From Escherichia phage UB: a stretch of 64,000 nt of DNA. The position numbers and the translations under genes are program-made. The notes under the pieces are model-generated. The model saw nothing but the letters and a program-made list of their open reading frames with translations. It was not told the DNA's origin and ran no database searches. Positions 13,265-63,965 of this stretch are shown one piece after another. The stretch's first letter is position 1; each line of letters begins with the position of its first letter. The stretch lies in sequence record MH383160. One strand, written 5' to 3'.

Positions 13265-13321
13265 TTCAACTTCTCCCTATTGGTGATGTAATCAAATTAT
13301 ATCACCGAATTCTGATACGTC

Positions 13322-15885: not shown

Positions 15886-15888
15886 CCT

Positions 15889-16414: not shown

Positions 16415-16423
16415 ATGAACTCC

Positions 16424-16681: not shown

Positions 16682-16708
16682 TTCTCCTTGTGCTTAGGCT
16701 AGATAGTA

Positions 16709-22543: not shown

Positions 22544-22553
22544 ATGTAACCTC

Positions 22554-43493: not shown

Positions 43494-44044
43494 AATAGTT
43501 CCTTATACATATTATGTACTTTACAAATCTCATTATAGTATTTCATATCAATATCATTTGTATTAAAAACGGAAACAGACAATACCGCTAAATCATCAAT
43601 GAAGTAATTATTATCGGCGTACTCTTTTAACTTATTGAACATATAGATGCATTTTATACTTAATTCATCATGCAACACACTGTTCTGAAAAATATTCTCT
43701 TCAGTATTAGGAGATAAGTAATCTTCAATTATATACGATAAACTACTATCGCAATCTTTATAGATTGAAATTGATGGATGTAATGTGTCATACATTACAC
43801 TAAACAGATCACCGTCATATGTGGATATTAAACTATTATTGGAAACAGTAGGATGATAATATTTCAGTACTGAAAACTTTGAACAATCAGTGCAGTAAAA
43901 ATGATCCATCCCTCGACGACTTTCGTATGAGAATAGTTTACTTGTATATTCAATCCCTTTGGTGCGACGGATTGTTTCATGCATTTCTGCACATTGCATT
44001 AAAATTACCATACGTTCAAACGCAAGATCTAAATCATCGTACAT
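43484..44044 (-). CDS. family A protein
   Basis: 186 aa; EENIFQNSVLH. Confidence 0.55.
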   Translation of the reverse strand: MYDDLDLAFERMVILMQCAEMHETIRRTKGIEYTSKLFSYESRRGMDHFYCTDCSKFSVLKYYHPTVSNNSLISTYDGDLFSVMYDTLHPSISIYKDCDSSLSYIIEDYLSPNTEENIFQNSVLHDELSIKCIYMFNKLKEYADNNYFIDDLAVLSVSVFNTNDIDMKYYNEICKVHNMYKELLCQ

Positions 44045-44225
44045 AACGGATATCCTTCTTCAACGAATTAATATATTCCAAAATAACTTGTTCCTGATAT
44101 TGAGTTCCCAAGTACATCAGGACTTTCAACTCTTTGAATTCAGTACTATATGAGTCTGTTTGCATCATTCTAGTAGAATATATATTGAATAGTTTAGCAA
44201 TGTCATTTTGGTCTATTATTTTCAT
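44034..44225 (-). CDS. family B small protein (outlier copy)
   Basis: 63 aa; LMYLGTQYQEQV. Confidence 0.45.
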   Translation of the reverse strand: MKIIDQNDIAKLFNIYSTRMMQTDSYSTEFKELKVLMYLGTQYQEQVILEYINSLKKDIRYVR

Positions 44226-44421
44226 ATATTCTCTTCTGGATTAGTTCCTGTAAGTGCTGAATATAACCCTTCATTGCAACATCCTGTTTGTTAGAGCCAA
44301 CGAAGAACAAGAGCTTAAAGTCATGGTAATCCATTTTTGGTTTAGTAGTGAACCATATGTCCCACACTGCACTCACAGTTCTCATGTATTCAATTCGATT
44401 AAATGTTTTTGAATACTTCAT
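44203..44421 (-). CDS. family B-like small protein (outlier copy)
   Basis: 72 aa; FFVGSNKQDVAMKGY. Confidence 0.4.
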   Translation of the reverse strand: MKYSKTFNRIEYMRTVSAVWDIWFTTKPKMDYHDFKLLFFVGSNKQDVAMKGYIQHLQELIQKRIYENNRPK

Positions 44422-44935
44422 CGATGTTCATCGCCAATAAGTTAATATACAAATTACTGTTAAATGCTATCTGCAATTCCATATAGAACTGAATGATAGC
44501 ATAGTCAGGGTCAGTACACGATAGTTGAAAGCACTGTTCTTCAAATGAATTGTAATTGTACTTAGGGATGTGAATTTCACGCTTCAAATCAGGTTGACCC
44601 CACTTCATCGCGTACACACCAATGTTATTGTTCTTTTTCCTTTTCTTAAATGTTAATTGTTGAATATTTCCTGCGTCATCCAGGAAAATAGTATTATTCG
44701 ACACAGGTGCACCAATAGAAAACAATGATGTATCAATTACGTGTGTCGCACGCACCTCACACTTCTGGAATGCCCCAGTACCCTGTAATACATAATGAAA
44801 ATTGTACTTCTCATTAACAACAGTACTAGGATCGATTAAACCAGTACTGCATTTTTTGAGTACTGGTACAATGGTGCGAATCTTTTTTGATAAATCTTGT
44901 AATGCATCAAAGTCATTGATGTTAACTTTCATCAC
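44399..44935 (-). CDS. family A protein
   Basis: 178 aa; EEQCFQLSCT. Confidence 0.55.
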   Translation of the reverse strand: MMKVNINDFDALQDLSKKIRTIVPVLKKCSTGLIDPSTVVNEKYNFHYVLQGTGAFQKCEVRATHVIDTSLFSIGAPVSNNTIFLDDAGNIQQLTFKKRKKNNNIGVYAMKWGQPDLKREIHIPKYNYNSFEEQCFQLSCTDPDYAIIQFYMELQIAFNSNLYINLLAMNIDEVFKNI

Positions 44936-45381
44936 TCGAATGTAGCCTCTTCAGTAGTAACAAAATTGGTTAGTGTATCCAGTTCAGCAGTGTCAAGATA
45001 AAATACATCTAGTACAGATTTCTGATATATTACACTGAATGTGCATAGATTGTCAAGTGTTCCTTGTTCATAAACAGTACTACCCTGGAAGTACCCTTCT
45101 TCAGTACTCAGGGATAAAATATCTGAAATTTTAAAAGATTCTTCAGTTGCATGTCTTTCTATATTAACTATATTGCCGTTTCGGTTCAATGAAATATAAT
45201 CGTATGCTAACTCAATTAGACTATAATTATCCGCATTAGTGTCAAATAAAGCGACAATTTTTCGTCTCAATCTCTCATCGTGATCATGGTTTTCATCAGC
45301 TAAGTATTCAGGATTTTCTTTGAAGAATTTAACGACGCGTAGAATATCATTTGCTTTCTTGATTGCACTTTCGTAACTCAT
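44932..45381 (-). CDS. family A protein
   Basis: 149 aa; EEGYFQGSTVY. Confidence 0.55.
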   Translation of the reverse strand: MSYESAIKKANDILRVVKFFKENPEYLADENHDHDERLRRKIVALFDTNADNYSLIELAYDYISLNRNGNIVNIERHATEESFKISDILSLSTEEGYFQGSTVYEQGTLDNLCTFSVIYQKSVLDVFYLDTAELDTLTNFVTTEEATFE

Positions 45382-45686
45382 AATAATTCAACCACTCCAT
45401 CTCTAAAGTACATATAACTACCACCATTGGATACTGTGAATTCTATTGTCCCCAATAATATATTATATTTTTTTATTTCACATGTAGTACTTGTAGTGTA
45501 AGGCTCACCATCTCCTAAGTACATTGACATATGACATAGAACTTTTCTACCAGCATATTTCTCTTCAAACGATTGTTCAAAACTATGCATAATTTGATTT
45601 AAAGCTGAAATGTAATTAATAAAGTCAGGTATTTCTGTCAATGAATTATAAACCGTACAAAGTGAATCAAATTCATTTTTAGTCAT
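45378..45686 (-). CDS. hypothetical small protein (K-Y-x-G family)
   Basis: 102 aa; EEKYAGRKVLC. Confidence 0.45.
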   Translation of the reverse strand: MTKNEFDSLCTVYNSLTEIPDFINYISALNQIMHSFEQSFEEKYAGRKVLCHMSMYLGDGEPYTTSTTCEIKKYNILLGTIEFTVSNGGSYMYFRDGVVELL

Positions 45687-46000
45687 TATATTTCTATCTC
45701 AATGTAATCCTGTGTGATTAAATAATCCCAATGATACTTCACCTGCTTTTGTAATTCAATTAACGTAAAGAAGTTGATCGATTTATCCCATACGAGCGAT
45801 TCCTGGAAAATAAATGATTCATGTTCATCGTAATAATCACACTCTAAAAAATCAGGTATATATTCACTATCGTGAATGTATTCAACAAACGAACTAGCTT
45901 GGCATTTCTTTACTACTAGTAATAATGAATTATCATGATCAAACAGATACAATAAACTAATTTCACCAGGGACGTACTGAACACTGAATAAGTTTTTCAT
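45686..46000 (-). CDS. family A protein
   Basis: 104 aa; ESFIFQESLVW. Confidence 0.55.
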   Translation of the reverse strand: MKNLFSVQYVPGEISLLYLFDHDNSLLLVVKKCQASSFVEYIHDSEYIPDFLECDYYDEHESFIFQESLVWDKSINFFTLIELQKQVKYHWDYLITQDYIEIEI

Positions 46001-46449
46001 TCTATACCTTCTGGATCTTTACGAAGTTCTTCGAAATCCAAATAAAATCGAGGACAGTTAACACTCTTTAAGTACCACATAATAACTAATGCTTCAAGTA
46101 CTTCATCATCGTAAACAGTACTGTTTTGGAAGTAATACTCTTCACTATCCCACGGACCTTCCAGTACTTCATAATTCAAAATTAATGGTTTTTTGCGATT
46201 AATAAAACGAATGCTACCATTTTCAACATAACTAATAAATTCTGCATCTCTATTGTATTCAGAAAACGATATAGGACTATTGGAATTCAACCCAAGAATA
46301 ACCCTTACACCAACGGAGTTATTATACATTTCATCCTTGTAGTAGTTGCCGTTCTCGGCTTTGTACACTTCTTTGAACTTTCCTGCCTTTATATCGTCAA
46401 AGTATCCATGTAGTTCTTTTGCTTTTTCAAGAGCACTTTGTAATGACAT
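45997..46449 (-). CDS. family A protein, MSLQSAL subfamily
   Basis: 150 aa; N-terminus MSLQSALEKAKELH; EEYYFQNSTVYDDEVLEALVIMWYLKSV. Confidence 0.6.
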   Translation of the reverse strand: MSLQSALEKAKELHGYFDDIKAGKFKEVYKAENGNYYKDEMYNNSVGVRVILGLNSNSPISFSEYNRDAEFISYVENGSIRFINRKKPLILNYEVLEGPWDSEEYYFQNSTVYDDEVLEALVIMWYLKSVNCPRFYLDFEELRKDPEGIE

Positions 46450-46915
46450 TACCTTCTCCTACAGTATTCTCTACATATTCATAATCAAAATAGAAACTAC
46501 TGGAGTCAATACTTTTGAAATACCACATAATTACAATAACATCTAATTCTTCTTCATTGTACAACGTACTATTCTGGAAGTAATATTCTTCACTATCCCA
46601 CGGTCCTTCCAGTACTGAATAAGGAATGATAGTGTCATCAGCATCACTATCTGTGTTGTAGATGGTAATATCTTCATTACGGCAATAACTAATGTACTGA
46701 TTGTACATATGATATTCACAGTTATCACTGTCACCAGTATCAGTGTGCAGTACTAATGTTTCTGCACATATCTCGGACTCGTCATAATCGTCACGGTCTT
46801 TTACAAAAAATTCAGTATCAGATGTTTTATACACCCCAGGTACTGAACCTTCCTGTACCATAATCATGTACTCATGAATCTTCTTTGCTTCTTTCAATGC
46901 ACTTTGTAACGACAT
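46427..46915 (-). CDS. family A protein, MSLQSAL subfamily
   Basis: 162 aa; MSLQSALKEAKKIH; EEYYFQNSTLYNEEELDVIVIMWYFKSI. Confidence 0.6.
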   Translation of the reverse strand: MSLQSALKEAKKIHEYMIMVQEGSVPGVYKTSDTEFFVKDRDDYDESEICAETLVLHTDTGDSDNCEYHMYNQYISYCRNEDITIYNTDSDADDTIIPYSVLEGPWDSEEYYFQNSTLYNEEELDVIVIMWYFKSIDSSSFYFDYEYVENTVGEGNVITKCS

Positions 46916-47358
46916 TACAAATCCCCTGTACTTAAATATTCACATGCTCCCCAGTCAAGAAAAAATGGTTCAAACTTCAATTCCTTAAAGTACCACAAAA
47001 CAACCAAGGAATCAAGCATTTCTTGGTTAAAAATAAGACTCTGTTGGAAGTAATACTCTTCAGTACCCCACGGGCCATCAAGTACCCCGAAGTCAACAGG
47101 TGTATTTGATGTGTCAAACGTAATCTTAGTACCTGGAATATATACAAAAAAACTAGTATATTGACTACATGAAGAGTACTGTATAGTATTGTCTTTATCC
47201 TGTCCCATAAGTAAAATATCATCAGAGTATGTCTTTATACCTGATAGATAATACTCATCACCAAATGCACTTACTTTATCACCATAGAACCCACTTTTTA
47301 TGTTATCGTGGAAGTGATGTATTCTGTGTGCTAGTTCAAGTGCACTTGCTAAACTCAT
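46915..47358 (-). CDS. family A protein, MSLQSAL subfamily
   Basis: 147 aa; MSLASALELAHRIH; EEYYFQQSLIFNQEMLDSLVVLWYFKEL. Confidence 0.6.
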   Translation of the reverse strand: MSLASALELAHRIHHFHDNIKSGFYGDKVSAFGDEYYLSGIKTYSDDILLMGQDKDNTIQYSSCSQYTSFFVYIPGTKITFDTSNTPVDFGVLDGPWGTEEYYFQQSLIFNQEMLDSLVVLWYFKELKFEPFFLDWGACEYLSTGDL

Positions 47359-47825
47359 ATATCCTCTTTAATAACTCGTAGTAGATCCAAGTCCAAATAG
47401 AAGCTAGGACAATCTGTATTATTAAAGTACCACAGAATGACAAGCTTGTCAAGTACATCTTCCTCGTAGATAGTATTCTGCTGGAAGTAGTACTCTTCAC
47501 TTCCCCAGTCATTATCCAGTACTGAATACGGAAGATGTTTCTCTGCTGCACCAGATATAATGTCAGAATCTTGTATTAAAATATCAGCATCACGACAGAA
47601 GTACATGTAATTATCTTCCAAATTAACATCACACCCATTGAGTGTTGTTTCAGAAGAATCTAAGTTTTCTTCATACATGTGAATGTACTCACTACTGTCA
47701 TCGTATCTCATTCGACAATAAGATTTACCTTCCTTGAATAGATATCCATTAAGACAATTTGCTACAATTTCTTTGCTGCATAAATCAATTAACTTCGCAA
47801 TCTCTAATGCTCTTTCTAAACTCAT
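47355..47825 (-). CDS. family A protein, MSLQSAL subfamily
   Basis: 156 aa; MSLERALEIAKLID; EEYYFQQNTIYEEDVLDKLVILWYFNNT. Confidence 0.6.
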   Translation of the reverse strand: MSLERALEIAKLIDLCSKEIVANCLNGYLFKEGKSYCRMRYDDSSEYIHMYEENLDSSETTLNGCDVNLEDNYMYFCRDADILIQDSDIISGAAEKHLPYSVLDNDWGSEEYYFQQNTIYEEDVLDKLVILWYFNNTDCPSFYLDLDLLRVIKEDI

Positions 47826-47826
47826 T

Positions 47827-48318
47827 TCAACCCCTGTTAATACCGTTATCTACAGTTTTCTTTACGTATTTGTAATCGAAATAGAAGTTCCCAGAACCAA
47901 TACTTTTAAAGTACCACATAATTATAATAACATCAAGTACTTCATTATCATATACAGTACTTTGTTGGAAGTAATACTCTTCACTATCCCACGGACCTTC
48001 CAGTACTTCACTCGGAATTATAATGTCATTGGAATCGCTGTCAGTACTGTTGATGGTATCTGTATCATTAATATAGACCATGTACTCATTATGCATATTA
48101 ATGAAGCATTCATAATCATTAGGGTCGGTATCTAGTATGCACGTTTCTGTATCCAGTACGCACGTTTCTGTATCTGAGCAGTCATTATAAAGGAGGTTAT
48201 CCGGTACATAATATTGAGTACTTGTGTCTTTGAAAACACCGTAAACTGAACCTTCTTTTGCCATATTCATGTACTCATGAATCTTCTTTGCTTTTTCCAA
48301 TGAACTCTGTAATGTCAT
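47827..48318 (-). CDS. family A protein, MSLQSAL subfamily
   Basis: 163 aa; MTLQSSLEKAKKIH; EEYYFQQSTVYDNEVLDVIIIMWYFKSI. Confidence 0.6.
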   Translation of the reverse strand: MTLQSSLEKAKKIHEYMNMAKEGSVYGVFKDTSTQYYVPDNLLYNDCSDTETCVLDTETCILDTDPNDYECFINMHNEYMVYINDTDTINSTDSDSNDIIIPSEVLEGPWDSEEYYFQQSTVYDNEVLDVIIIMWYFKSIGSGNFYFDYKYVKKTVDNGINRG

Positions 48319-48327
48319 TTTATAATC

Positions 48328-48687
48328 TCATATATTGAAATAATAATTATTCGTTCTTGATGGGGATGGATTAAATACGTTTTCTTTTTCAAATCTCTTC
48401 ATTTCATTTTGCAAAGAAACCATTTCTTCAAATGTACAGGAGTACTTATTCTTATCAAACACTAATGCAGCCTGAAATAGTTCGCCATCGTCCAGTACTG
48501 TATAATCTATAAGACTCTCAGATTCATAGTCATAGTCGTCATGTGATACATGAATAAATTTAAAACAAGAATCTTTGTAATGCATATATAAACTCAACTC
48601 ATGTTCCGAGTCGCCCTTAATAAGATTACAGCACAAGTCCCATCCTTTAGGTAACTTATAATAGTACATAGAATAATCATATGTCAT
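48328..48687 (-). CDS. family A protein, LVFDK subfamily
   Basis: 119 aa; DGELFQAALVFDKNKYSCTFEEMVSLQNEMK. Confidence 0.55.
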   Translation of the reverse strand: MTYDYSMYYYKLPKGWDLCCNLIKGDSEHELSLYMHYKDSCFKFIHVSHDDYDYESESLIDYTVLDDGELFQAALVFDKNKYSCTFEEMVSLQNEMKRFEKENVFNPSPSRTNNYYFNI

Positions 48688-49043
48688 TCTTGAATTCCTA
48701 AATTGAATTTGTATTCTTGATTAATACTTGCATTGGGTTTATGCAAAGCAGCATACTCTTTCATTTCATTTTGTATTGCAATAACTTCTTCAAATGTACA
48801 CAAGTACTTCTTATCAAATACTAATGATTCTTGGAATAGTTCTGCGGTATCCATTAATGTATAGTCCGGCATATCTTGGTGTGGATACTGTAATGAACTG
48901 TAATCAATGAATGTAAATTTACCCTGAGTGTAATGAATATACTCATTCGCACTGTGCATTAAATCACCTTTGTTTAAATTACAAAAGTACTGATAACTGT
49001 GCTTGAAAGTATGTACTGATATTAAAAAATCAAATTCCATCAC
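48684..49043 (-). CDS. family A protein, LVFDK subfamily
   Basis: 119 aa; TAELFQESLVFDKKYLCTFEEVIAIQNEMK. Confidence 0.55.
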   Translation of the reverse strand: MMEFDFLISVHTFKHSYQYFCNLNKGDLMHSANEYIHYTQGKFTFIDYSSLQYPHQDMPDYTLMDTAELFQESLVFDKKYLCTFEEVIAIQNEMKEYAALHKPNASINQEYKFNLGIQE

Positions 49044-49417
49044 TCTTCTCCTAGATTAAAAAATTTCCAGAAATCGGCCTCACCAGTACTGCACCAGATA
49101 TCTATACATTCCCTGTGAATACATTTAATTCTACGCTGTAATTCAATCATCTCTTCTAATGTACAGATGTACTTCTTATCAAATACTAATGCCTCCTGGA
49201 ACAGTGCAGCATCATCAAGTACTGTATAGTCCGGCATCTCGATAGATATCCCATGAAACCCAGTACTAAAATCCATCAAATAAAAGTCAGCATTCCAGTA
49301 CTTTAAAATCTTGTCCCTAGCGTAGTTTAAATCACCCTTGTATAAGTTAGAGTGCGTAACTAACTCACCAGTGTACATCCATGTCCTTGCACAAAATTCA
49401 TTATATTTTATTTCCAT
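49040..49417 (-). CDS. family A protein, LVFDK subfamily
   Basis: Track ORF 49040..49525 trimmed to internal Met (MEIKYNEF) by analogy with paralogue length; DAALFQEALVFDKKYICTLEEMIELQRRIK. Confidence 0.5.
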   Translation of the reverse strand: MEIKYNEFCARTWMYTGELVTHSNLYKGDLNYARDKILKYWNADFYLMDFSTGFHGISIEMPDYTVLDDAALFQEALVFDKKYICTLEEMIELQRRIKCIHRECIDIWCSTGEADFWKFFNLGEE

Positions 49418-49614
49418 CTTAATCTCTACTATAATTAATAAGGTAAACTCCAATATAAGGAGCACGTTGCGGGGGCGGGGTATTTTTTGTTTCAGGAAAC
49501 ATGAACTGTACTCTGAAAAACACAATATAAAACTTTATATTAAACATATACCTTAGCATGTTTTTCAGCGGAAATTTTTTTGACCCCCCTGCGGCCTGTA
49601 AAAATGAAACGTCT

Positions 49615-49824
49615 CTATTTATTCAGCCTAGAAAGCTTGATTTCTTCAATCCTTTTCATCGCACAAAGCCTTCGACTCGTCATCTCGTATAAATTCAATA
49701 CTCGGTGTACCGTATTATCTACACTCTGAACCAAATATGTATCCTTCAAAATCAAATCCATCATGTATTCAAAACCCTTAATACTATGCGAACTTAACAC
49801 TTCCGGCTCTTCAAACGTAATCAT
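49615..49824 (-). CDS. hypothetical small protein
   Basis: 69 aa ORF. Confidence 0.4.
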   Translation of the reverse strand: MITFEEPEVLSSHSIKGFEYMMDLILKDTYLVQSVDNTVHRVLNLYEMTSRRLCAMKRIEEIKLSRLNK

Positions 49825-50041
49825 AATTCCAATCCCCTATCCCATCTAACCTTCTAAGATATCTTGCGTAAATTATTTCGAAATATCTGTGCAACGAAAT
49901 TACGGATTGCTCATAATCATCATTCCTGTACATTGTGCATGTAAGAAAATCATTTAACCCAAAATCTAAACTGCACTTGAACTTCTCCTTTGCAATATCA
50001 CTATTACTTGCACTTTTCATAATAAACCCTTTGTACCGCAT
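49811..50041 (-). CDS. hypothetical small protein
   Basis: 76 aa ORF. Confidence 0.4.
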   Translation of the reverse strand: MRYKGFIMKSASNSDIAKEKFKCSLDFGLNDFLTCTMYRNDDYEQSVISLHRYFEIIYARYLRRLDGIGDWNYDYV

Positions 50042-50195: not shown

Positions 50196-50819
50196 TCATA
50201 CATTAACAACTTTATCGATGTAATCTTCTAACATATCAATATATCTGGTATTGGTTCTAACTAAAAGGTATGCAAATCCAGAGAACTCATGTGTATAATG
50301 CTTTACAGCGTACATACAACGAAGCTTATCATTGTCATACATTGTACTGTACTGAAACAAACTCTCGTCTGATAGCTCTAATAACGCTTGGGCTTCACTT
50401 CTCGTGAACTTCATAGGGTCATGTACTGCATCACAAAAACAAACCTGTGTCTCGCTATTGAAACCCTGTGATAGATATATACCTTCACACTCTGAACGCA
50501 CCGATACTGCATTATAACTATGTGTTGCCCCCATCATATCTGAACTCAAAACTAAAATCAACCCATTTTTATTTTTAATCAACAAATCTGACTTAAGGGA
50601 TTTGATCTCCGTATGGGAAATATCACCAAATCTTCCTGGGACTTCAAACTTATCAACGTTGTATACAATCTTTTGTACTTGCTCTTTTAAACGCTTAATT
50701 GCACTTCTGTCTTTTTCTAATGTATCTAATAAACTCATTGAACTCATTGTGCTTTCCTTACATATTTGTACCGAACAAAACGGAACTTTGAATGCCATTA
50801 ATCGACACTTCATGTACAT
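50196..50819 (-). CDS. family A protein
   Basis: 207 aa; DESLFQYSTMY; start likely internal. Confidence 0.55.
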   Translation of the reverse strand: MYMKCRLMAFKVPFCSVQICKESTMSSMSLLDTLEKDRSAIKRLKEQVQKIVYNVDKFEVPGRFGDISHTEIKSLKSDLLIKNKNGLILVLSSDMMGATHSYNAVSVRSECEGIYLSQGFNSETQVCFCDAVHDPMKFTRSEAQALLELSDESLFQYSTMYDNDKLRCMYAVKHYTHEFSGFAYLLVRTNTRYIDMLEDYIDKVVNV

Positions 50820-51102
50820 ATATATTTTGTCTGAACAAAGGAACTAATTGAACTAAACTCGTTTGCATAATAATATGCATATGTACATTGTCATATGCCG
50901 TTTCGTATTGGAAACGTGCAGCTTCATCTTCTATGAAATTCGGAACTTGGACTGGATTCTCAAAATTTGTCCTTGTACTGAACTGTACATCATTGTCCTG
51001 TACCTTAATACCATATGAATTATCATTGTTATCAACTACATCAAATTCAATTAAACTACCATCTTTACTGACGTTTACTATATAAACCGAAAATCGACTC
51101 AT
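50758..51102 (-). CDS. family A protein (variant motif)
   Basis: 114 aa; EAARFQYETAY. Confidence 0.5.
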   Translation of the reverse strand: MSRFSVYIVNVSKDGSLIEFDVVDNNDNSYGIKVQDNDVQFSTRTNFENPVQVPNFIEDEAARFQYETAYDNVHMHIIMQTSLVQLVPLFRQNIYVHEVSINGIQSSVLFGTNM

Positions 51103-56171: not shown

Positions 56172-56524
56172 CCGTAATGAATAGGACTATTCTTTTCTCC
56201 TTTAGGAATAAAATATAAAGATGTACTGGGGTTATAACTGAATAAATCGTTGTTACCAAATGTAAAATGCGATAACTCAATTTTCCTTGTACCTGTACTT
56301 GGACGAAGAGCATTCTTAACACCGAAGACTGTACCTTGATATTTCTCGGAAAATTCAAACAATACATCTGTAATTAAATCACGAAACTCCGCATGTATGG
56401 TTTCAAAAAAATCTATATTACACGATGTTTTAATATCCTTGAACTCATTATAAAAAGCATGTCTTGTATTCAAAAGAAATATTACTTTTTTAAGATCCTG
56501 AACTATTTCTGGATTCATATTCAT
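56114..56524 (-). CDS. hypothetical protein
   Basis: 136 aa ORF. Confidence 0.45.
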   Translation of the reverse strand: MNMNPEIVQDLKKVIFLLNTRHAFYNEFKDIKTSCNIDFFETIHAEFRDLITDVLFEFSEKYQGTVFGVKNALRPSTGTRKIELSHFTFGNNDLFSYNPSTSLYFIPKGEKNSPIHYGWIISYTINGTEYPIKWHD

Positions 56525-56756
56525 TTATCTCATTCTGTAACTTAAGCATCAAAATTTGCATATTAATTTTTTGTAAAAGGTGCTTGATAAATTTCTGTGC
56601 CATTTCTTCTTGTTCTTTTGTACCAAGATAAAATAACAGATTAAATTCTGATAATCGCAAAGAAAAATCTTCATCACCACCCTTTAAACAAAAATCCCTG
56701 TACTTTGTAGCGTACAAATATTGGTTTACCTTTTTATAATACCCTGTGTTTTGCAT
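56490..56756 (-). CDS. family B small protein (outlier copy)
   Basis: 88 aa; FYLGTKEQEEMAQKFIKHL. Confidence 0.45.
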   Translation of the reverse strand: MQNTGYYKKVNQYLYATKYRDFCLKGGDEDFSLRLSEFNLLFYLGTKEQEEMAQKFIKHLLQKINMQILMLKLQNEINEYESRNSSGS

Positions 56757-56944
56757 ACTATCTCCGTTCGCAACGAATTTATATAATAATGAACAAATTG
56801 TTCTTGTGAACGTGTTCCAAGAAAAATAAACATATCAAACTCTGTTGTTTTTAAATTCAATGCATCTTTTGTAAAATTCCTGTTGAATTCCCTGTACTTT
56901 TGGGTCTTCCATTCTTGATTAATTGTCTTGTATATCGATTTCAA
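56726..56944 (-). CDS. family B small protein (outlier copy)
   Basis: 72 aa; IFLGTRSQEQFVHYYINSL. Confidence 0.45.
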   Translation of the reverse strand: MKSIYKTINQEWKTQKYREFNRNFTKDALNLKTTEFDMFIFLGTRSQEQFVHYYINSLRTEIVCKTQGIIKR

Positions 56945-57239
56945 TGATTCTCCCTGACATACCTTGTATTAGCTTATCATACATATCGAGCATCACTTTT
57001 TGAATATTAATTAGTACTGGCATCGTGCAAATATCAATGTCGTATACTAAGCTGTACTGGAATAATTCATCTTCCTGCATTTGTACTAAATTAGGTAAAA
57101 GATAATTGTCTGCCTCTTCATCCTGGTACTTGAAATGCATAACACCATCCTTTTTGTACAAAAGAATGTCAATATCACCTAACTCTTCTGCATAACCAAA
57201 AATACATATACTCGATGTTTTTGCTATATTAAATTTCAT
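56919..57239 (-). CDS. family A protein
   Basis: 106 aa; EDELFQYSLVY. Confidence 0.55.
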   Translation of the reverse strand: MKFNIAKTSSICIFGYAEELGDIDILLYKKDGVMHFKYQDEEADNYLLPNLVQMQEDELFQYSLVYDIDICTMPVLINIQKVMLDMYDKLIQGMSGRIIEIDIQDN

Positions 57240-58045
57240 GATTTATATTGTTCCTTAAAAACACCACAATGATAATTTTTATTGTATTGTGTAATACTAT
57301 AATCACACGGCATTGTCCCGCACGAAGCTCTGTGTTTTAAACGTTCCAATACCTTATCGTAATCTTTACTGAAAATGCCATTTTCATTGGGCGTAGCAAT
57401 CATTAATGCTTGCTCATATAAATCTTTTGTTCTTGTTGAACCATGCGAATGTTTGTTAAAATAAAATACATATTCAACTTCCCAATTACTTCTTAAATAG
57501 GATATTCCGTAATTGATAATCATATAATAATGTAAATCCTTGTAATAATTGAATGTCTTATCTGTATTAATCAAAATATATGAAGAACTATCATTGTCCT
57601 TAATAACAAATAAACGACCAATCTTATTTTCTTTATCTTTAACTAATTGTCTAATTTCATCACCTTCTTCAAATTTACGATGCACTTCAATTACAGATTT
57701 AGCAATCCCAGTCTGTACTAAAGATTCATATGTTGCGTACATAAAATCACTTACATGACCTAAACCAACATCTTCTTTTCTTGGTGTCTCTGTTGTATTG
57801 ACAAACATATTCAATAACTTTTGAATTGAAAAATCAGTACTGCAATCTTTATTAATTTTAATTTTTTCTCGAATCTCTTCCTTTAATGCATTAATATATT
57901 GCTCTTGTGCTGCTTCCTGATAATTTGTACCAAGATATAAACTCAAGGCAACTGAACCTTTGTAAGATGCTGATTTCTTTAAATCACCAGAACTAAATTT
58001 TTTCATAATCAAATTGGTTGCTTCAGATTCTGTTAAAAATTTCAT
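57236..58045 (-). CDS. family B module fused to a larger C-terminal domain
   Basis: 269 aa; N-terminal about 75 aa carries LSLYLGTNYQEAAQEQYINALKEEI; followed by about 190 aa unrelated region. Confidence 0.55.
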   Translation of the reverse strand: MKFLTESEATNLIMKKFSSGDLKKSASYKGSVALSLYLGTNYQEAAQEQYINALKEEIREKIKINKDCSTDFSIQKLLNMFVNTTETPRKEDVGLGHVSDFMYATYESLVQTGIAKSVIEVHRKFEEGDEIRQLVKDKENKIGRLFVIKDNDSSSYILINTDKTFNYYKDLHYYMIINYGISYLRSNWEVEYVFYFNKHSHGSTRTKDLYEQALMIATPNENGIFSKDYDKVLERLKHRASCGTMPCDYSITQYNKNYHCGVFKEQYKS

Positions 58046-58153
58046 ATCATTGTACCTTATCTTAAAATTGAATAGGTAAACATGTTAACACTATTCAAAT
58101 GGAGTGTCAACATTGATCTTCATTCTGTGAATATTAAATTTCATATTATTCTC

Positions 58154-58486
58154 TTATATATTGAATTCACATACGTGTTGAACAAAATTCTTTGGAAGAT
58201 GACAATGTGCAATCATCTGCTGTTGCACTTTCTTCATATCTTCTAATGTAAAACCTAAAGAATCATCGTGTACTAACATGTACTGAAACTCTTCTTCTTC
58301 AGAGATAGAACATAAATTCGGTACTGAAATTGTTTTTGTTTTTCTTGCACCTAATTTCCAATGAAAAGAATTATTGCATTTTCTGTACTCAAATATCTTC
58401 AACCCAGCACCTCTATTAAAATCAGCTACTACAATGTAACATGAATTCTTACGTACAATACAATTAAATTTACGCATTATCTCCAC
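58154..58486 (-). CDS. family A protein
   Basis: 110 aa; EEEEFQYMLVH. Confidence 0.55.
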   Translation of the reverse strand: MEIMRKFNCIVRKNSCYIVVADFNRGAGLKIFEYRKCNNSFHWKLGARKTKTISVPNLCSISEEEEFQYMLVHDDSLGFTLEDMKKVQQQMIAHCHLPKNFVQHVCEFNI

Positions 58487-58722
58487 CTCTCTCCGTCATC
58501 GCAAGAGTACTGGTACGTTGTCGTTAGGGTAGGGACCATGTTGGTAATGGGCATATTATTAACAATAACCGTAACAGGCATAAGAATCGTCTCTACTCTA
58601 CTCTGTCCTGTCCTTGTGCAATTCATCTTTTGCATTTCATCTGAATCCATGAAATACAATACAAATGGTGCAATCCCAAGAACAATACACAAGACGATAA
58701 GGAAATTTAAAAAATTTAACAT
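58477..58722 (-). CDS. small membrane protein
   Basis: 81 aa with N-terminal hydrophobic helix (FLNFLIVLCIVLGIAPFVLYF). Confidence 0.4.
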   Translation of the reverse strand: MLNFLNFLIVLCIVLGIAPFVLYFMDSDEMQKMNCTRTGQSRVETILMPVTVIVNNMPITNMVPTLTTTYQYSCDDGERWR

Positions 58723-58781
58723 AATTTTTACCCTATGATTAACGTTAGTGTACTATATCAGTAATGAAAAGTACTGTCAAG

Positions 58782-59177
58782 CTAGTACTGCACTGTTCTA
58801 ATGAAAGTACCTTTACTCATGGATTTAAGCTTATGAACCTCTTCCTGCATACCCTTAATTAACCCTAAAGGTATAGGTAAATCATGTACTAAGCTGTACT
58901 GAAAGTATTCTTCTTCAGATAAAGTACTAACATCTGGGACTCCAATTTTAGTTAGATAATCTTGATGTGTTGACCAATAAATTATATCTTCAGTACTATT
59001 GTACTCCCCATATACTGAACAATATTGATGAATATCTTTCCTGTACCCTTGAGCAATAAAGAACTTATCTACTGCATTACCAGCATTAATAGAATTCACT
59101 TCTATTGTCACAGTACTTGAGCTTGTATAACTCTTAATATTATCAGTACTCAATAATGTGTTCTTCATAATCACCAT
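58782..59177 (-). CDS. family A protein
   Basis: 131 aa; LSEEEYFQYSLVH. Confidence 0.55.
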   Translation of the reverse strand: MVIMKNTLLSTDNIKSYTSSSTVTIEVNSINAGNAVDKFFIAQGYRKDIHQYCSVYGEYNSTEDIIYWSTHQDYLTKIGVPDVSTLSEEEYFQYSLVHDLPIPLGLIKGMQEEVHKLKSMSKGTFIRTVQY

Positions 59178-59487
59178 TAGGCTCCTGTTTAGATTCTTTC
59201 ATTAGTACTATCATCTTATGTACTAATGGCATAGGAAACTCTAAATCCCATACTAATGATTCCTGAAAGTATTCTTCTTCAGATAAAGTACTTAAATCTT
59301 TAATATCAACGTGCTTGTATATTTTATTTTCGTAATTAACAAATGATATATATAAATCACTAACATAAGAATCATAGGTAATTGTGAATGGCTTACCCTT
59401 GTAATCCATTACATCTCTACATAGACTACTTTTGATATATGTATGTTCAAATGATTTATATACCTTGAGTTGTATATTAGTTTTCAT
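59143..59487 (-). CDS. family A protein
   Basis: 114 aa; LSEEEYFQESLVW. Confidence 0.55.
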   Translation of the reverse strand: MKTNIQLKVYKSFEHTYIKSSLCRDVMDYKGKPFTITYDSYVSDLYISFVNYENKIYKHVDIKDLSTLSEEEYFQESLVWDLEFPMPLVHKMIVLMKESKQEPNGDYEEHIIEY

Positions 59488-59752
59488 ATTTCTCTTTATT
59501 AGCTTGTTTTGTTTTATGGTGAATTAAATCTATTAATGTAATCAAGTACAACGTCAAATAGTACTCTTGTTGATCTGTACCTAATGATACAAAGAACTTG
59601 TGCTCATAGATTAAAACCTGTTTCTCTTCAAATGGACATTTAATCCTCTGTATAGGCTTAAGTAAATGATAGTACTTATTAAATCTATGATACATTTCTA
59701 GTTCTGTCAGTACTTTCATATTAAACACGTACTCCATTAGCAGTAGCATCAC
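59477..59752 (-). CDS. family B small protein
   Basis: 91 aa; VSLGTDQQEYYL. Confidence 0.5.
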   Translation of the reverse strand: MMLLLMEYVFNMKVLTELEMYHRFNKYYHLLKPIQRIKCPFEEKQVLIYEHKFFVSLGTDQQEYYLTLYLITLIDLIHHKTKQANKEKYEN

Positions 59753-59942
59753 GTAAAGCTGTCAAATACTTCTGTACTGCTTGCTCTTGTTTATTTGTAC
59801 CTAAAAGTATATACATCCATAATTCACTGTAATGTACATCTTCTGTATAAGGGTTGTTGTAACTTTTTGATAATATAGCATCAAATTCAGATGCATGAAC
59901 CCTTGTGAACTTAAGAATATCTTGTTGTGTTATGATTCTCAT
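59721..59942 (-). CDS. family B small protein
   Basis: 73 aa; ILLGTNKQEQAV. Confidence 0.5.
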   Translation of the reverse strand: MRIITQQDILKFTRVHASEFDAILSKSYNNPYTEDVHYSELWMYILLGTNKQEQAVQKYLTALRDATANGVRV

Positions 59943-60154
59943 ATCTTTTCCTGTACAATCTGTATAAGAATACCTATGTGTGAATTAACAGTTCTCTCTT
60001 GATGCTGTGTTCCTAAGAGTGTCAGTACTATCATATCTGAACGCAAAAGATTTTTTTCAAGTTCACTTATATCAGTTCTTGAATCAAGTGCCATATATTT
60101 GTGATTATTCTTCCTGAATAGTGCCAAGTACTCTTGATTTGATATTTCCTTCAT
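59939..60154 (-). CDS. family B small protein
   Basis: 71 aa; LTLLGTQHQERTV. Confidence 0.5.
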   Translation of the reverse strand: MKEISNQEYLALFRKNNHKYMALDSRTDISELEKNLLRSDMIVLTLLGTQHQERTVNSHIGILIQIVQEKI

Positions 60155-60372
60155 AGTTTATTCCTGATGCCATTTAAAAGTGCTCTAATATGCTCATTGA
60201 CAAATCGCTCTTGGGAATCTGTTCCTAGAGTGAGTAGCAATCTTAAATCTGAACTTTTGATGTGATATTCTAAATCATTATTTGATTCTTGCATCAGTTT
60301 CTTAAAGGATGAGAAGTTTGCAGCCATTAGTTCAATGTATTCTGCTGTTCCTAGTGGTTTGTGTGTTGACAT
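60151..60372 (-). CDS. family B small protein
   Basis: 73 aa; LLTLGTDSQERFV. Confidence 0.5.
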   Translation of the reverse strand: MSTHKPLGTAEYIELMAANFSSFKKLMQESNNDLEYHIKSSDLRLLLTLGTDSQERFVNEHIRALLNGIRNKL

Positions 60373-60584
60373 TTGAGTTGTATTACCCTTTTGAGTGTAT
60401 TAATGTAATTATACACATTGGCTTCTTGATAGTTTGTTCCTAGAGTAGCTTGAACATAGATTTCATTTAACTTAATAATTTTATCAGTATCTGGTAGTTT
60501 TGATGTGTTAATGGCAAATAACTTCAAAAACAGTCCATTTAAGATTGTTAGGTATTCTTCGTCGGTAATGATTCGCATTTGCAT
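60351..60584 (-). CDS. family B small protein
   Basis: 77 aa; ATLGTNYQEANV. Confidence 0.5.
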   Translation of the reverse strand: MQMRIITDEEYLTILNGLFLKLFAINTSKLPDTDKIIKLNEIYVQATLGTNYQEANVYNYINTLKRVIQLKCQHTNH

Positions 60585-60796
60585 TGGATAAACCTTTTTA
60601 GTTCTTTGATGTAATCATTAATATTGCATTCTTGGTAGTTAGTTCCCAGTGTAGCTTGAACATAGATTTCACTTACTAGAATACTTATTTCATCATCTGG
60701 TAATTTCATGCTTTTTGTTATAAACAACTTTAGAATTAAACTACTTAATAGTTGGTTGTATTCTGTGGGTGAAATGATTTTCATTTTCATTTGCAT
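60548..60796 (-). CDS. family B small protein
   Basis: 82 aa; ATLGTNYQECNI. Confidence 0.5.
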   Translation of the reverse strand: MQMKMKIISPTEYNQLLSSLILKLFITKSMKLPDDEISILVSEIYVQATLGTNYQECNINDYIKELKRFIQCKCESLPTKNT

Positions 60797-61002
60797 TTTC
60801 TCAGTACTGATTCTTTAAGTTCATTGATGTAGTCCTCAACGAATTGTTCTTGTAGGTTTGTTCCGAGATATAACAGTACTCTTAAATCTGCTCTAAGTAC
60901 TTCTTTGTCATCTTCATCTATATCAGACAGTGTTATGTTTAAGAATTTACTTGAATTCTCTACAAGTAATATTACTTCTTCACCTTCTCTTAAAATTTTC
61001 AT
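60787..61002 (-). CDS. family B small protein
   Basis: 71 aa; LYLGTNLQEQFV. Confidence 0.5.
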   Translation of the reverse strand: MKILREGEEVILLVENSSKFLNITLSDIDEDDKEVLRADLRVLLYLGTNLQEQFVEDYINELKESVLRKCK

Positions 61003-61208
61003 AATCTTAGTGCTTTCCTCGACAGTAGGTACAGGTAACGTTCAGTGCATTGTTCTTGATAGTTTGTTCCTAATAAATGAACTAAATGTTGTTCAGCTAT
61101 AGAAAGCTGCTTGTCTTCATAACAAGCGTATCGTTGTTTCCTATGGTATTCTTTATTGATAACATCAAGGATGATAACACCGTATTCGTCATCTGTCAAG
61201 TGTTTCAT
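60999..61208 (-). CDS. family B small protein
   Basis: 69 aa; HLLGTNYQEQCT. Confidence 0.5.
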   Translation of the reverse strand: MKHLTDDEYGVIILDVINKEYHRKQRYACYEDKQLSIAEQHLVHLLGTNYQEQCTERYLYLLSRKALRL

Positions 61209-61446
61209 GCTTTTTTCTTTTTCTTATATGTTTAGTTAAAAGGTATATTAGTTTTCTGATGTATTCTTCCTGATAGTTTGTTCCTAAGAGTGCAAGAAGT
61301 TTTGCTTCAACTAAAGCTAATTGACGTTCTTCGAATGTGTGTTCCAGTATGTACTTGGGGTTTGATTTTTTAGCGTAAGCACTATTAGTCTTCATTACAA
61401 TCTTATGATATTCATTAGCTGTTAGGATTTTTAAATACTTGATCAT
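61189..61446 (-). CDS. family B small protein
   Basis: 85 aa; ALLGTNYQEEYI. Confidence 0.5.
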   Translation of the reverse strand: MIKYLKILTANEYHKIVMKTNSAYAKKSNPKYILEHTFEERQLALVEAKLLALLGTNYQEEYIRKLIYLLTKHIRKRKKHETLDR

Positions 61447-61666
61447 GTATCTTTTCCTTTATAGAGAATTTAAGATATCGAAGCATACTTTCAATGTAAT
61501 ACTCTTGTCTGTCAGTGCCAAGAAAGTACATGAGTTGAATGTATAAAACTTCTGCACTCCTTTCCGCTGGAGACTTGTTTGTGTCGTTTGGAAGTTGATT
61601 TGTATGTTTTCTTGATTTAATTAGTCGTTCTTTTAACTCATCGTCTGTTAAGTATTTCATTTTCAT
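61415..61666 (-). CDS. family B small protein (PAERSAEVL subtype)
   Basis: 83 aa; PAERSAEVLYIQLMYFLGTDRQEYYI. Confidence 0.5.
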   Translation of the reverse strand: MKMKYLTDDELKERLIKSRKHTNQLPNDTNKSPAERSAEVLYIQLMYFLGTDRQEYYIESMLRYLKFSIKEKIHDQVFKNPNS

Positions 61667-61892
61667 TTACTTTTTCCTTAATAGTAATTTTAAGATATCT
61701 AATCATACGTGCAACATATTCCTCTTGTCTATCAGTTCCCAGAAGATATGGTAGTGATTGGAATAATACTTCTGCACTCCTTTCTGCTGGGGTTTGGTTT
61801 AGGTCAATTGGACGTTTATTGGTATATCTCTTGGCACGAACTAATCTCTCGACGTATTCATTATAGGTTAAGTATATCATTTCATTTTGCAT
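61638..61892 (-). CDS. family B small protein (PAERSAEVL subtype)
   Basis: 84 aa; PAERSAEVLFQSLPYLLGTDRQEEYV. Confidence 0.5.
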   Translation of the reverse strand: MQNEMIYLTYNEYVERLVRAKRYTNKRPIDLNQTPAERSAEVLFQSLPYLLGTDRQEEYVARMIRYLKITIKEKVNENEILNRR

Positions 61893-62118
61893 TTACTTTT
61901 TCCTTAATAGTAATTTTGAGATATTTAATTATACGTTCAATGTGATACTCTTGCCTATCAGTTCCAAGAAGGTATGGTAATCTTTGGAATAAAACTTCCG
62001 CACTCCTTTCTGCTGGGGTTTGATTTGTGTTGTGAGGAAGTTTATTTGTAAGTCTTTTGGATTTATCTAGTCTTTCTGTTAACTCATCATGTGTTAAGTA
62101 TATCATTTCATTTTGCAT
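61882..62118 (-). CDS. family B small protein (PAERSAEVL subtype)
   Basis: 78 aa; PAERSAEVLFQRLPYLLGTDRQEYHI; N-terminus MQNEMIYLT identical to neighbour. Confidence 0.5.
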   Translation of the reverse strand: MQNEMIYLTHDELTERLDKSKRLTNKLPHNTNQTPAERSAEVLFQRLPYLLGTDRQEYHIERIIKYLKITIKEKVNAK

Positions 62119-62345
62119 TTAATGTTCCTTACGTAAATTGTCTGGATTAAACAATCAATCCAAGTTTGAATATATTGGTTTTGATACTGTGTGCCTAAGA
62201 GACTCTGCATTTTAAACTCTGCTTCAAGTTCATATCTCTTTTCTATAGAAAAGCTCAAATGACCATATTCTTTATCGTATCTTCTCAGTGCTTCCCCAAT
62301 TCTATTAAATCTTTCTGCTAATCTGATGTTATTCACAATATTCAT
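62103..62345 (-). CDS. family B small protein
   Basis: 80 aa; SLLGTQYQNQYI. Confidence 0.5.
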   Translation of the reverse strand: MNIVNNIRLAERFNRIGEALRRYDKEYGHLSFSIEKRYELEAEFKMQSLLGTQYQNQYIQTWIDCLIQTIYVRNIKCKMK

Positions 62346-62632
62346 CGATCAGTATACCTCAGTGGTTGGGTCATTTGATAAAAGTACAGCTTACCTTTGA
62401 TTTCCAGTAGTAACTCCGCGATTAAGCGATTTACTTCTGTATCTTGATAGTTTGTTCCTAAGAATACACCCATCTTTAACTCACGCATCATAATCATTTT
62501 CTTACTGTGTTGGATTTCTGGGTTGTGATAAATTGTATTACGTTTGTGCGTAATTTTTGTCATACGCTCGGTATATTCATCTTTACTTAAATTGATCATT
62601 TGCATGTTAATTACCCTTACATTTATTTTCAA
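62342..62632 (-). CDS. family B small protein
   Basis: 96 aa; VFLGTNYQDTEV. Confidence 0.5.
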   Translation of the reverse strand: MKINVRVINMQMINLSKDEYTERMTKITHKRNTIYHNPEIQHSKKMIMMRELKMGVFLGTNYQDTEVNRLIAELLLEIKGKLYFYQMTQPLRYTDR

Positions 62633-62837
62633 TACTATTCATGAGTTCTATAAGATAGTTTTCTACCTTACCTTCCTGATAGTTAGTCCCTAGGAAGTTG
62701 CACAACACGGCTTCTATGATTTTGATTTTCCTGATATCAGGCTTCAATCTTTTGTTATTGAATATTTGAATCCTTATATCTCTGGATGCATTTAAACGTT
62801 TTTGATATTCATGGTAAGTTAAATGAATCATTTTCAT
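62607..62837 (-). CDS. family B small protein
   Basis: 76 aa; NFLGTNYQEGKV. Confidence 0.5.
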   Translation of the reverse strand: MKMIHLTYHEYQKRLNASRDIRIQIFNNKRLKPDIRKIKIIEAVLCNFLGTNYQEGKVENYLIELMNSIENKCKGN

Positions 62838-63052
62838 TTACGTTTAACCTCTCGCTGGAGGGCATCAATTAACATCAGTACAGCATTCTCTTGATAGTTT
62901 GTTCCTAAGACTGAAAGCATCTTTATCTCATTTACTAAAATCAACTTCTTTGAGGGTTCAATAATGTGACTATCATAAACGGCCTTACGTGCTGGATAAG
63001 TTTTCGCCAGTATAACATAAAATTCGTCTTTACTTAAATTAATCATTTGCAT
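62834..63052 (-). CDS. family B small protein
   Basis: 72 aa; SVLGTNYQENAV. Confidence 0.5.
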   Translation of the reverse strand: MQMINLSKDEFYVILAKTYPARKAVYDSHIIEPSKKLILVNEIKMLSVLGTNYQENAVLMLIDALQREVKRK

Positions 63053-63261
63053 TTACTTTTAACCTCTTTCTGTAGAGCGTCAATCCATAGATCTACATAC
63101 ATTTGTTGATAGTTTGTGCCTAAGAGTGCACCTACATAGAGTTCAGTTACTAGTGCGTGCTTAAGGTTAGCTTGGATGCTCTTATCGCTTGATATCATTC
63201 TCCTTCTGCTTCCACATGTTTTCAGGAGTCTGATGTATTCAAAGCCTTGTAAATTTCTCAT
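63043..63261 (-). CDS. family B small protein
   Basis: 72 aa; ALLGTNYQQMYV. Confidence 0.5.
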   Translation of the reverse strand: MRNLQGFEYIRLLKTCGSRRRMISSDKSIQANLKHALVTELYVGALLGTNYQQMYVDLWIDALQKEVKSKCK

Positions 63262-63473
63262 ATTTTGGATACCACCTTGTTACGTAAGGAACTTAATAAT
63301 ACGTCAGTGTAGATGTTTTGATAGTTTGTCCCTACGAATACACCCAACTTCATTTCAGCTATTATAACACATTTGTCCTCTTGTGCAATAGATTTGTTTA
63401 ACACAATACTATACACTTTTGATTTGATAGTTTGTAACCTCCAATGATACTGATACTCATTAAGGATTATCAT
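63258..63473 (-). CDS. family B small protein
   Basis: 71 aa; VFVGTNYQNIYT. Confidence 0.5.
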   Translation of the reverse strand: MIILNEYQYHWRLQTIKSKVYSIVLNKSIAQEDKCVIIAEMKLGVFVGTNYQNIYTDVLLSSLRNKVVSKI

Positions 63474-63708
63474 TCTCTTTCCTCCAGATTTCGGTTCTCA
63501 TGTGTTGGCAGTGTGCTTCGATGAACATATCTATTGATTTGGCAATTGCGTTTTTATCAGTGCCTGTCATCAGTACAAGCATCTCGGCCTCACAGTGAAG
63601 TAAACGCATGATATCATAGGGTAATATTTCAGATACAGTGTCATAGTGTTTCTGTGCCAGTGTCTGCAATAGTTTACAATACATTTTGTGATTTAGTCTT
63701 TGTCGCAT
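63460..63708 (-). CDS. family B-like small protein (divergent)
   Basis: 82 aa; LVLMTGTDKNAIAKSI. Confidence 0.4.
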   Translation of the reverse strand: MRQRLNHKMYCKLLQTLAQKHYDTVSEILPYDIMRLLHCEAEMLVLMTGTDKNAIAKSIDMFIEAHCQHMRTEIWRKENDNP

Positions 63709-63965
63709 TGTTTATTCCATTCTTTTTTGGCCTTGATGGTTTTATATTGGATTTGGTTTCTTAATGCTGATAAGTATCGTTGAATGAACAGATCTTGATA
63801 GTTTGTTCCAATGAATTTCATAAGATAAAGTTCACCGTTGATAACATCCACTTCAGGTGCACCATATAAGGCATTGTTTTTTCTAAGGGCATGGATTAAA
63901 GAGAATAGGGCAGTTTGATACTCAACTCCTGATAAAGTCTTCATGTTTTGTGAGCAAATAATCAT
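63693..63965 (-). CDS. family B small protein
   Basis: 90 aa; KFIGTNYQDLFIQRYL. Confidence 0.5.
   Translation of the reverse strand: MIICSQNMKTLSGVEYQTALFSLIHALRKNNALYGAPEVDVINGELYLMKFIGTNYQDLFIQRYLSALRNQIQYKTIKAKKEWNKQCDKD

Follow-up and report, generated by a model that had tools for sequence, protein, structure and literature searches.

Escherichia phage UB (sequence record MH383160) carries two adjoining tandem arrays of small minus-strand genes within the stretch of 64,000 nucleotides (nt) analyzed here, which we call the window and whose first letter is position 1. Five genes (45997-48318) form the first array and three the second, and all eight open reading frames (ORFs), listed in Table 1, are present as an earlier note on this DNA had described them. 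The five share an N-terminus, M[ST]L[QAE][SR][AS]L, and a C-terminal block, EEYYFQ[NQ][SN]...WY[FL]; the form MSL[QAE][SR]AL given in that note holds for the array, with a small departure in the fifth gene, which starts MTLQSSL. The three genes of the second array have ELFQ[EA][SA]LVFDK in common, as the note also had it, and are called LVFDK genes below. Pairwise amino acid identity is 28-58% among the five, over full-length alignments, and 34-42% among the three.

Adjoining, on the same strand and homologous over their whole length, the members of each array are tandemly duplicated paralogues by definition. This paralogy is also visible in the DNA. Comparison of the region with itself by blastn gives 15 off-diagonal matches, including one of 502 nt at 69.7% identity between paralogues 2 and 5, which are the closest pair in protein as well (58% amino acid identity). 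A five-copy repeat family of 145 nt covers the C-terminal block (67-78% identity, spacing 437-484 nt), a 51-nt family marks the 5′ ends of the five genes, and three-copy families run over the LVFDK sub-array. The tandem duplication proposed in the note is thus borne out, and the similarity is not confined to the short motif: when this motif of 15 residues is excised, the upstream parts still match in BLASTP for most pairs (E values of 2e-28 to 4e-3) and the downstream tails of the five match in 10 of 10 pairs (E ≤1.5e-4), with the three LVFDK genes behaving alike. The five proteins match PHROG 9317 at full length (E 4e-55 to 9e-66) and the three match PHROG 15629 likewise (E 3e-54 to 8e-60).

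The third LVFDK gene is real, and the note had over-extended it to a TTG at 49525. That start would add 36 residues reaching into a conserved non-coding stretch, and the PHROG 15629 match starts only at residue 41 of the long ORF. The start is most likely ATG 49417, or 49378 as annotated in relatives. A closer look at paralogue 5 reveals two tandem 21-nt units (48125-48166) that are 86% identical, in perfect register, and encode DTETC[VI]L twice within the acidic variable region of the protein; the orthologue in phage A4 has a single unit and that in UE-S1 is 6 amino acids shorter.

Table 1. Coordinates of the array genes and of other features in the window (aa, amino acids; pI, isoelectric point; E, E value).
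Feature	Coordinates	Strand	Remarks
Five-type paralogue 1	45997..46449	-	150 aa, pI 4.67; FQ codons 46126-46131; PHROG 9317, E 8e-60
Five-type paralogue 2	46427..46915	-	162 aa, pI 4.05, net charge -26; 23-nt overlap with paralogue 1
Five-type paralogue 3	46915..47358	-	147 aa, pI 4.34; orthologues 81-97% identical
Five-type paralogue 4	47355..47825	-	156 aa, pI 4.10; upstream half most divergent of the five
Five-type paralogue 5	47827..48318	-	163 aa, pI 4.05; begins MTLQSSL; phAPEC6 orthologue is gp442c
LVFDK paralogue 1	48328..48687	-	119 aa; orthologue of 121Q gp369; PHROG 15629, E 8e-60
LVFDK paralogue 2	48684..49040	-	118 aa from ATG; orthologue of 121Q gp368
LVFDK paralogue 3	49040..49417	-	125 aa from ATG 49417; orthologue of 121Q gp365
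Family-motif ORF missed by the profile	44399-44935		EEQCFQLS; listed also as SFEEQCFQLSCTD
Family-motif ORF missed by the profile	50758-51102		AARFQYETAYDN; listed also as DEAARFQYETAYDN
Calcineurin-like phosphoesterase 1	6424-7215		metallophosphoesterase
ATP-dependent DNA ligase	7235-8653		
Calcineurin-like phosphoesterase 2	10787-11545		metallophosphoesterase
Polynucleotide kinase-phosphatase	14953-15885		
RNA ligase 1	16709-17851		T4-type
Promoter-like site	~37.75 kb		TTTACA-N17-TGTTATAAT
Further promoter-like sites	41.6, 53.5, 58.1, 58.75 kb		

The age of the duplications was judged from related phages and from synonymous divergence. The window comes from a jumbo coliphage of the genus Asteriusvirus: a megablast search with 45000-50000 returns 35 records of Escherichia or Salmonella phages, every one a jumbo phage of this genus, with nt identities of 98.7% to Salmonella phage SD-6_S16, 98.0% to PBECO4 and 92.9% to 121Q. 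A tblastn search with one member hits five or six places in 31 of these 35 records. All five genes, in unchanged order and each with its own orthologue, are found in 121Q, BF17, G17, UE-S1, Ecwhy_1, slurp01 and EC.P1, and the LVFDK genes are annotated after them (gp374-370 and then gp369-365 in the numbering of 121Q). Orthologue identity is 80-100% in 121Q, BF17, G17, UE-S1 and slurp01. Paralogue 1 is 92% identical to gp374 of 121Q and falls to 68-69% in Ecwhy_1 and EC.P1, and paralogue 2 keeps 91-100% in all seven phages. Between the paralogues themselves, the proportion of synonymous differences (pS) in the middle region is 0.61-0.94, saturated in all ten pairs and still 0.75 in the closest one. 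The saturation, the conserved order and the separate orthologue of each gene together indicate that the genes were duplicated before the genus radiated. The earlier note had called them recent, which these results do not bear out.

The note was right about conserved ends and a divergent middle (proportion of nonsynonymous differences 0.31-0.61 in the middle vs 0.11-0.33 in the C-terminal block), and wrong in reading the middle as a hypervariable segment. The ratio of nonsynonymous to synonymous substitution (dN/dS), which like the other measures follows Nei and Gojobori and was pooled over pairwise comparisons of only eight sequences, lies between 0.03 and 0.65 among orthologues across the N-terminal, middle and C-terminal regions, indicating purifying selection. 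In the middle region it is 0.09-0.40, no higher than in the flanks for most genes. The middle is therefore an old, fixed difference between paralogues, with no active hypervariable segment, and purifying selection on each surviving copy means that none is redundant. Within a larger superfamily described below, the two sub-arrays form the youngest and most closely related clusters, their members scoring 73-166 bits against each other vs 24-49 bits for all other best pairs in the window. We also noticed a tract of 113 nt that is 88.5% identical between the non-adjacent paralogues 1 and 5; for this pair pS is 0.38 in the C-terminal block vs 0.94 in the middle. The lower C-block pS in pairs with paralogue 1 is a weak hint of gene conversion between copies.

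More recent turnover can be followed at the distal end of the three-gene array. Pairwise DNA alignment shows that 589 bp present in 121Q, BF17, slurp01 and G17 are absent from the window, with the junction at 49041..49043. In 121Q the missing segment adjoins the three-gene array and comprises gp367, a divergent family member (EEEFFQESTVWNL), and most of gp366, whose residues 1-27 duplicate the gp368 N-terminus. It is bracketed there by a direct repeat of 85 nt (6962-7046 and 7551-7635 in the 121Q locus, a spacing of 589, the segments being 90-96% identical), of which the window keeps one copy, 48959-49043, that is, the 5′ 85 nt of LVFDK paralogue 2. Judging from these repeats, the indel was left by homologous recombination between the 5′ ends of paralogues, as a deletion here or an insertion there. 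It also explains why LVFDK paralogue 3 is the orthologue of gp365 (90% identity) and not of gp367 (20%). In UE-S1 the orthologues of LVFDK paralogues 2 and 3 are fused into one ORF of 242 amino acids (5166-5894 in its locus), and Ecwhy_1 and EC.P1 also have no gp367 and have other versions of the distal gene (5666-6128 in their loci), so that this end of the array, as far as genome comparison goes, appears to be a rearrangement hotspot. Phage A4 retains orthologues of four of the five (95%, 92%, 77% and 61%), with another family member in place of paralogue 1. In the distant Turkey5 only paralogue 4 has one clear orthologue (57.5%), and five-type and three-type genes are interleaved. The clearly recent events are only small ones, namely the 589-bp indel and the 21-nt tandem repeat in paralogue 5.

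The two arrays belong to a much larger superfamily. An iterated profile hidden Markov model (HMM) seeded with the five finds at least 37 minus-strand members between 30463 and 59487, amounting to about 18 kb of coding sequence in the window, and the family is larger than 37 since two ORFs missed by the HMM carry the motif (Table 1). In an alignment of 66 sequences, comprising window members and database homologues, Phe107 and Gln108 (paralogue 1 numbering) are the only invariant residues. The consensus of the remote homologues is [ST]EEx[YLF]FQxS[TL][VIL][YH][DN]; across proteins that share only 11-25% identity with the reference sequence, F-Q never varies and the EE and S on either side hardly do, and the residue after Q may be Y, L, N, Q, G, M or E. 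Both codons vary synonymously (TTC/TTT and CAA/CAG), which places the constraint on the protein and led us to reject a nucleotide-level element as the cause of the conservation. PHROGs divides the superfamily into at least 10 families, all of 'unknown function' (besides the two above, 12674, 13866, 34017, 32681, 28680, 34516, 38467 and 34636), which the iterated HMM, the motif and structural matches unite.

The distribution of the family is narrow. A word-indexed search of 5.8 billion proteins gives 41 clusters for the five-gene profile, all on contigs of Asteriusvirus size and none with a Pfam domain, and 33 clusters for the three-gene profile. When 1.84 billion representatives are searched exhaustively by HMMER with a broad profile, only 134 proteins of 39-241 amino acids are returned at E ≤1e-3, among which no family member has an added domain; the sole long match (P0150, 241 amino acids) is a false positive, a tetratricopeptide-repeat protein whose repeat happens to read EAEGYFQQSLVI. 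Foldseek against the viral predicted structures of BFVD retrieves only proteins of 121Q, SP27, RaK2, GAP32, Serratia phage BF and Yersinia phage fHe-Yen9-04. One remote representative is 46-48% identical to proteins of Klebsiella RaK2-like phages, and the HMM built from the window detects 27 ORFs, with the motif in each, in a 40.5-kb locus of RaK2. With homologues only in RaK2-like jumbo phages, the family is old, confined to them and expanded in each genus. No prophage or plasmid copy was matched in the complete RefSeq genomes of E. coli, and in IMG/VR the five-gene profile finds only the genome of 121Q itself. Many family proteins (P0006, P0013, P0016, P0020, P0022, P0028 and others) are labelled 'Escherichia coli' at NCBI and lie on contigs of 347-358 kb, which look like complete genomes of Asteriusvirus phages deposited as part of bacterial assemblies. 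One further fragment, on a contig of 563 bp labelled Actinomadura adrarensis, is probably contamination.

Structure prediction with AlphaFold2 and the family alignment gives a confident model for paralogue 1, with a predicted local distance difference test score (pLDDT) of 90.1 and a predicted template modeling score of 0.85. The model is composed of a helix (residues 3-21), seven strands within residues 28-91, three helices (93-97, 103-109, which contains EEYYFQN, and 115-129) and a strand at 135-138. In the predicted five-type fold, a conserved N-terminal helix is followed by an antiparallel β-sheet, whose sequence and length vary from paralogue to paralogue and which bears acidic inserts; the C-terminal helical module, also conserved, is organized around the invariant [ST]EEx[YLF]FQxS. 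In the model of LVFDK paralogue 2 (pLDDT 81.9), five strands precede two helices and a last strand, and the N-terminal helix is missing; the three-type is predicted to be a shorter version of the five-type. A profile search against PDB sequences found nothing, the predicted fold has no solved relative, and no family in Pfam-A, NCBIfam or PADLOC scores above its curated cut-off; a match to DUF6051 is a sub-threshold chance hit (12.6 bits, cut-off 27).

The five proteins have isoelectric points (pI) of 4.05-4.67, net charges of -10 to -26 and no hydrophobic, transmembrane-like span. The median pI of the family is 4.95 vs 5.84 for other ORFs, some members being near neutral or basic with a pI of up to 8.9. 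In the virion proteome of phAPEC6, which is a relative's data and not this isolate's, 0 of 62 proteins fall between gp347 and gp549; the array orthologue gp442c lies inside gp348-gp548, which argues that the array proteins are not part of the virion. Each family protein is thus predicted to be small, soluble, mostly acidic and non-virion.

The block that holds the arrays lies in DNA with a GC content of 29-36% in which nearly all ORFs of at least 90 amino acids are on the minus strand. Long polycistronic units are suggested by the start and stop codons of neighboring genes in it, which mostly overlap or abut (by -1, -4 and similar). The few gaps that reach 40 nt hold hairpin-plus-T-run terminators followed by sigma-70-like promoters (resembling TTGACA-N17-TATAAT; Table 1). 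The exact extended -10-like string TGATATAAT occurs ten times, 10 of 10 on the coding (minus) strand between 5592 and 41636, where 4.2 are expected on both strands together, and several of these sites sit in intergenic gaps directly after such terminators. The pattern suggests host sigma-70-dependent transcription units, and the region resembles, by analogy, a T4-like early or accessory region. A set of T4-like nucleic-acid repair genes (6424-17851, Table 1) lies upstream of the paralogue block, and its polynucleotide kinase-phosphatase and RNA ligase 1 are the classic counter to PrrC-type anticodon nucleases.

A non-coding gap of about 200 nt next to the arrays (49418-49614) is nearly identical between the window and 121Q, where the flanking genes differ more, and contains the G/C-rich runs CCCCGCCCCCGC and GCAGGGGGG. 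It matches no Rfam family, contains no tRNA by ARAGORN and folds no better than its shuffles (z-score 0.37); it is possibly a promoter or terminator region. Two other tandem families were seen in the window. One is denser, with 23 minus-strand genes for about 70-95 amino acids (56490-63965, plus 44034-44225 and the N-terminus of 57236-58045) sharing a near-invariant LGT[ND]xQ[EDN] (pairwise identity median 24%, maximum 73%). The other, a small one, consists of five adjoining minus-strand genes linked by BLASTP, for 91-103 amino acids, at 21985-23394.

The best explanation of these observations as a whole, to which we give a probability of roughly 0.6, is an old and maintained gene family that serves as a host-interaction repertoire. 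Its evolutionary part, which we hold with little reservation, is that of an old, selectively kept tandem multigene family with slow birth and death through recombination between copies. The eight genes are two old local clusters in a multigene family specific to the RaK2-like jumbo phages, arisen by ancient tandem duplications and later divergence; members are still added, removed or fused by homologous recombination between paralogous segments, and one phage lineage may differ from another by replacement of whole alleles. Its functional part is more tentative: the products may be early intracellular binding proteins, in which a constant scaffold displays a paralogue-specific surface and the repertoire would be aimed at different host targets, for example in host takeover or counter-defence. 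Nothing seen points to an enzymatic or structural role; the proteins are taken to be non-enzymatic because no catalytic-type residues are conserved, F and Q alone being invariant. A bolder version, unlikely in our estimate, would make the superfamily an undescribed fold used as a diversified binder scaffold, the FQ module docking a shared partner or stabilizing the protein and the acidic face of the sheet recognizing dozens of host proteins, as an arsenal for counter-defence and host range that would parallel the multigene families found in poxviruses and in African swine fever virus (ASFV).

Several points weigh against this explanation. Neither experiment nor homology, as searched in Pfam, NCBIfam, PADLOC and PHROGs, ties a function to any family protein, and the FQ motif could be purely structural, for example a helix cap with a buried aromatic residue. 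The orthologues are under purifying selection, as far as pooled pairwise Nei-Gojobori values from eight sequences tell, where an arms-race repertoire might show diversifying selection. Compared directly with hhalign, the five-type and three-type profiles are only weakly linked (E 4e-4, probability 35%, with the motif and the preceding strands aligned), and their union rests mainly on intermediate members. For early expression, consensus-like promoter sites would be the only ground: a generic scan of 44-52 kb finds no more promoters than in shuffled sequence, there is no promoter inside 41.7-49.5 kb and none directly upstream of the eight genes, and the literature on Asteriusvirus transcription and on the superfamily offered no transcript data and nothing specific.

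Among the alternatives, an adaptor family survives best and is still improbable. Here the FQ module would dock, or be processed by, one common partner (a host protease, chaperone or polymerase) and the sheet would recruit different substrates, much as F-box or PRANC-type viral adaptors do. A motif so strictly kept in proteins of such low identity, and an architecture of one constant and one variable module, are what it would lead one to expect. The pattern E-x-x-Y-x-Q-G/S is that of the potyviral NIa protease, and EEGYFQGS in some members fits it, which may be coincidence. Against this, the motif lies in no disordered tail but inside a confidently folded helix-turn-helix (103-109 and 115-129) and may be structural, the residue after Q is variable, and no candidate partner or Gln-specific protease was identified. 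Neither a protease site nor a β-clamp-binding motif (QL[SD]LF) is supported as a reading of the FQ motif, which is part of a folded helix and has neighboring positions that do not match.

The genes might instead be filler, that is, neutral duplicates with no individual function that occupy an enlarged headful capsid, in line with the ratchet idea of Hua et al. (2017). The lack of any function detectable by Pfam, PHROGs, NCBIfam or PADLOC and the gain and loss of members between strains would suit this idea, which we nevertheless regard as quite improbable: none of the eight ORFs is disrupted, purifying selection acts on their orthologues, the motif is invariant in protein under synonymous codon change, a family with the same motif is retained in RaK2, another genus, and the structure predictions are confident for both types.

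The account in the earlier note, recent tandem duplications followed by divergence of a central segment, taken here as fast divergence under diversifying selection, is less probable again and largely refuted. It did capture that the sub-arrays hold the most similar pairs in the family and that the ends are conserved around a variable middle, and the 113-nt tract and low C-block pS of paralogues 1 and 5 could mark later gene conversion. The saturated synonymous sites of the middle in all ten pairs, the one-to-one orthologues of all five and the low middle dN/dS speak against it. Least likely are virion-associated or assembly proteins (inner-body, injected or 'hairy' fiber components): the inner body and unusual fibers of Asteriusvirus have components partly unassigned, and the injected internal proteins of T4 are typically small and acidic, but none of the 62 phAPEC6 virion proteins comes from gp348-gp548, where the array sits, and the genes lie among sigma-70-type promoter sites and replication and repair genes rather than in the structural module.

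The preferred explanation, a maintained host-interaction repertoire, has parallels elsewhere. The MGF360/505 genes of ASFV and the ankyrin/PRANC arrays of poxviruses are tandem, diverged paralogues whose copy number changes by recombination and which have roles in host range and immune evasion. The likeness lies in tandem diverged paralogues near non-structural regions, in copy-number change and in repertoires that differ between strains. They belong, however, to another virus realm and have unrelated folds, the roles considered here would be carried over by analogy, and with copies this old and stable there is no rapid 'accordion' amplification. T7 Ocr, ArdA and T4 Arn are small acidic anti-restriction proteins that mimic DNA. 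The five resemble them in being small, strongly acidic (in composition only), non-virion and probably early; no sequence or fold match to Ocr or ArdA was found, and the near-neutral and basic members mean that acidity does not define the family.

Lineage-specific expansion of paralogues in a jumbo phage is a well-known kind of event, and the present family is an uncharacterized case of it. In the portions of the literature consulted, the zinc-ribbon expansion of about 35 copies in Bacillus phage G (Iyer et al. 2021, PMC7824862) is similar in that one small domain occurs in dozens of copies in a single jumbo-phage lineage; it involves another domain, and that survey does not describe the superfamily studied here. 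For the same genus (121Q), Hua et al. (2017) remark in one sentence on tandem duplication as a route of genome expansion. The sentence gives neither coordinates nor a definition of the family, its motif, structure or dating, and it may refer to the other array, the LGTxYQE genes (70-85 amino acids, 56.5-64 kb). The phAPEC6 paper repeats it and the RaK2 paper counts about 10% of RaK2 proteins as paralogues. Within the portions consulted, the published accounts of these phages do not describe the motif, age, structure or definition of the superfamily.

About 18 kb, or some 5% of a genome of 350 kb, is devoted to a single orphan family, every copy of which is under selection, and which is found only in RaK2-like jumbo phages, several of them under development for therapy. 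By the corrected dating the repertoire is ancient and stable, gaining and losing members slowly, and is not an actively amplifying 'accordion'. If the proteins do act in host interaction or counter-defence, the array would offer many new inhibitors within a small stretch of DNA, and it could account for differences in host range between near-identical therapeutic phages.

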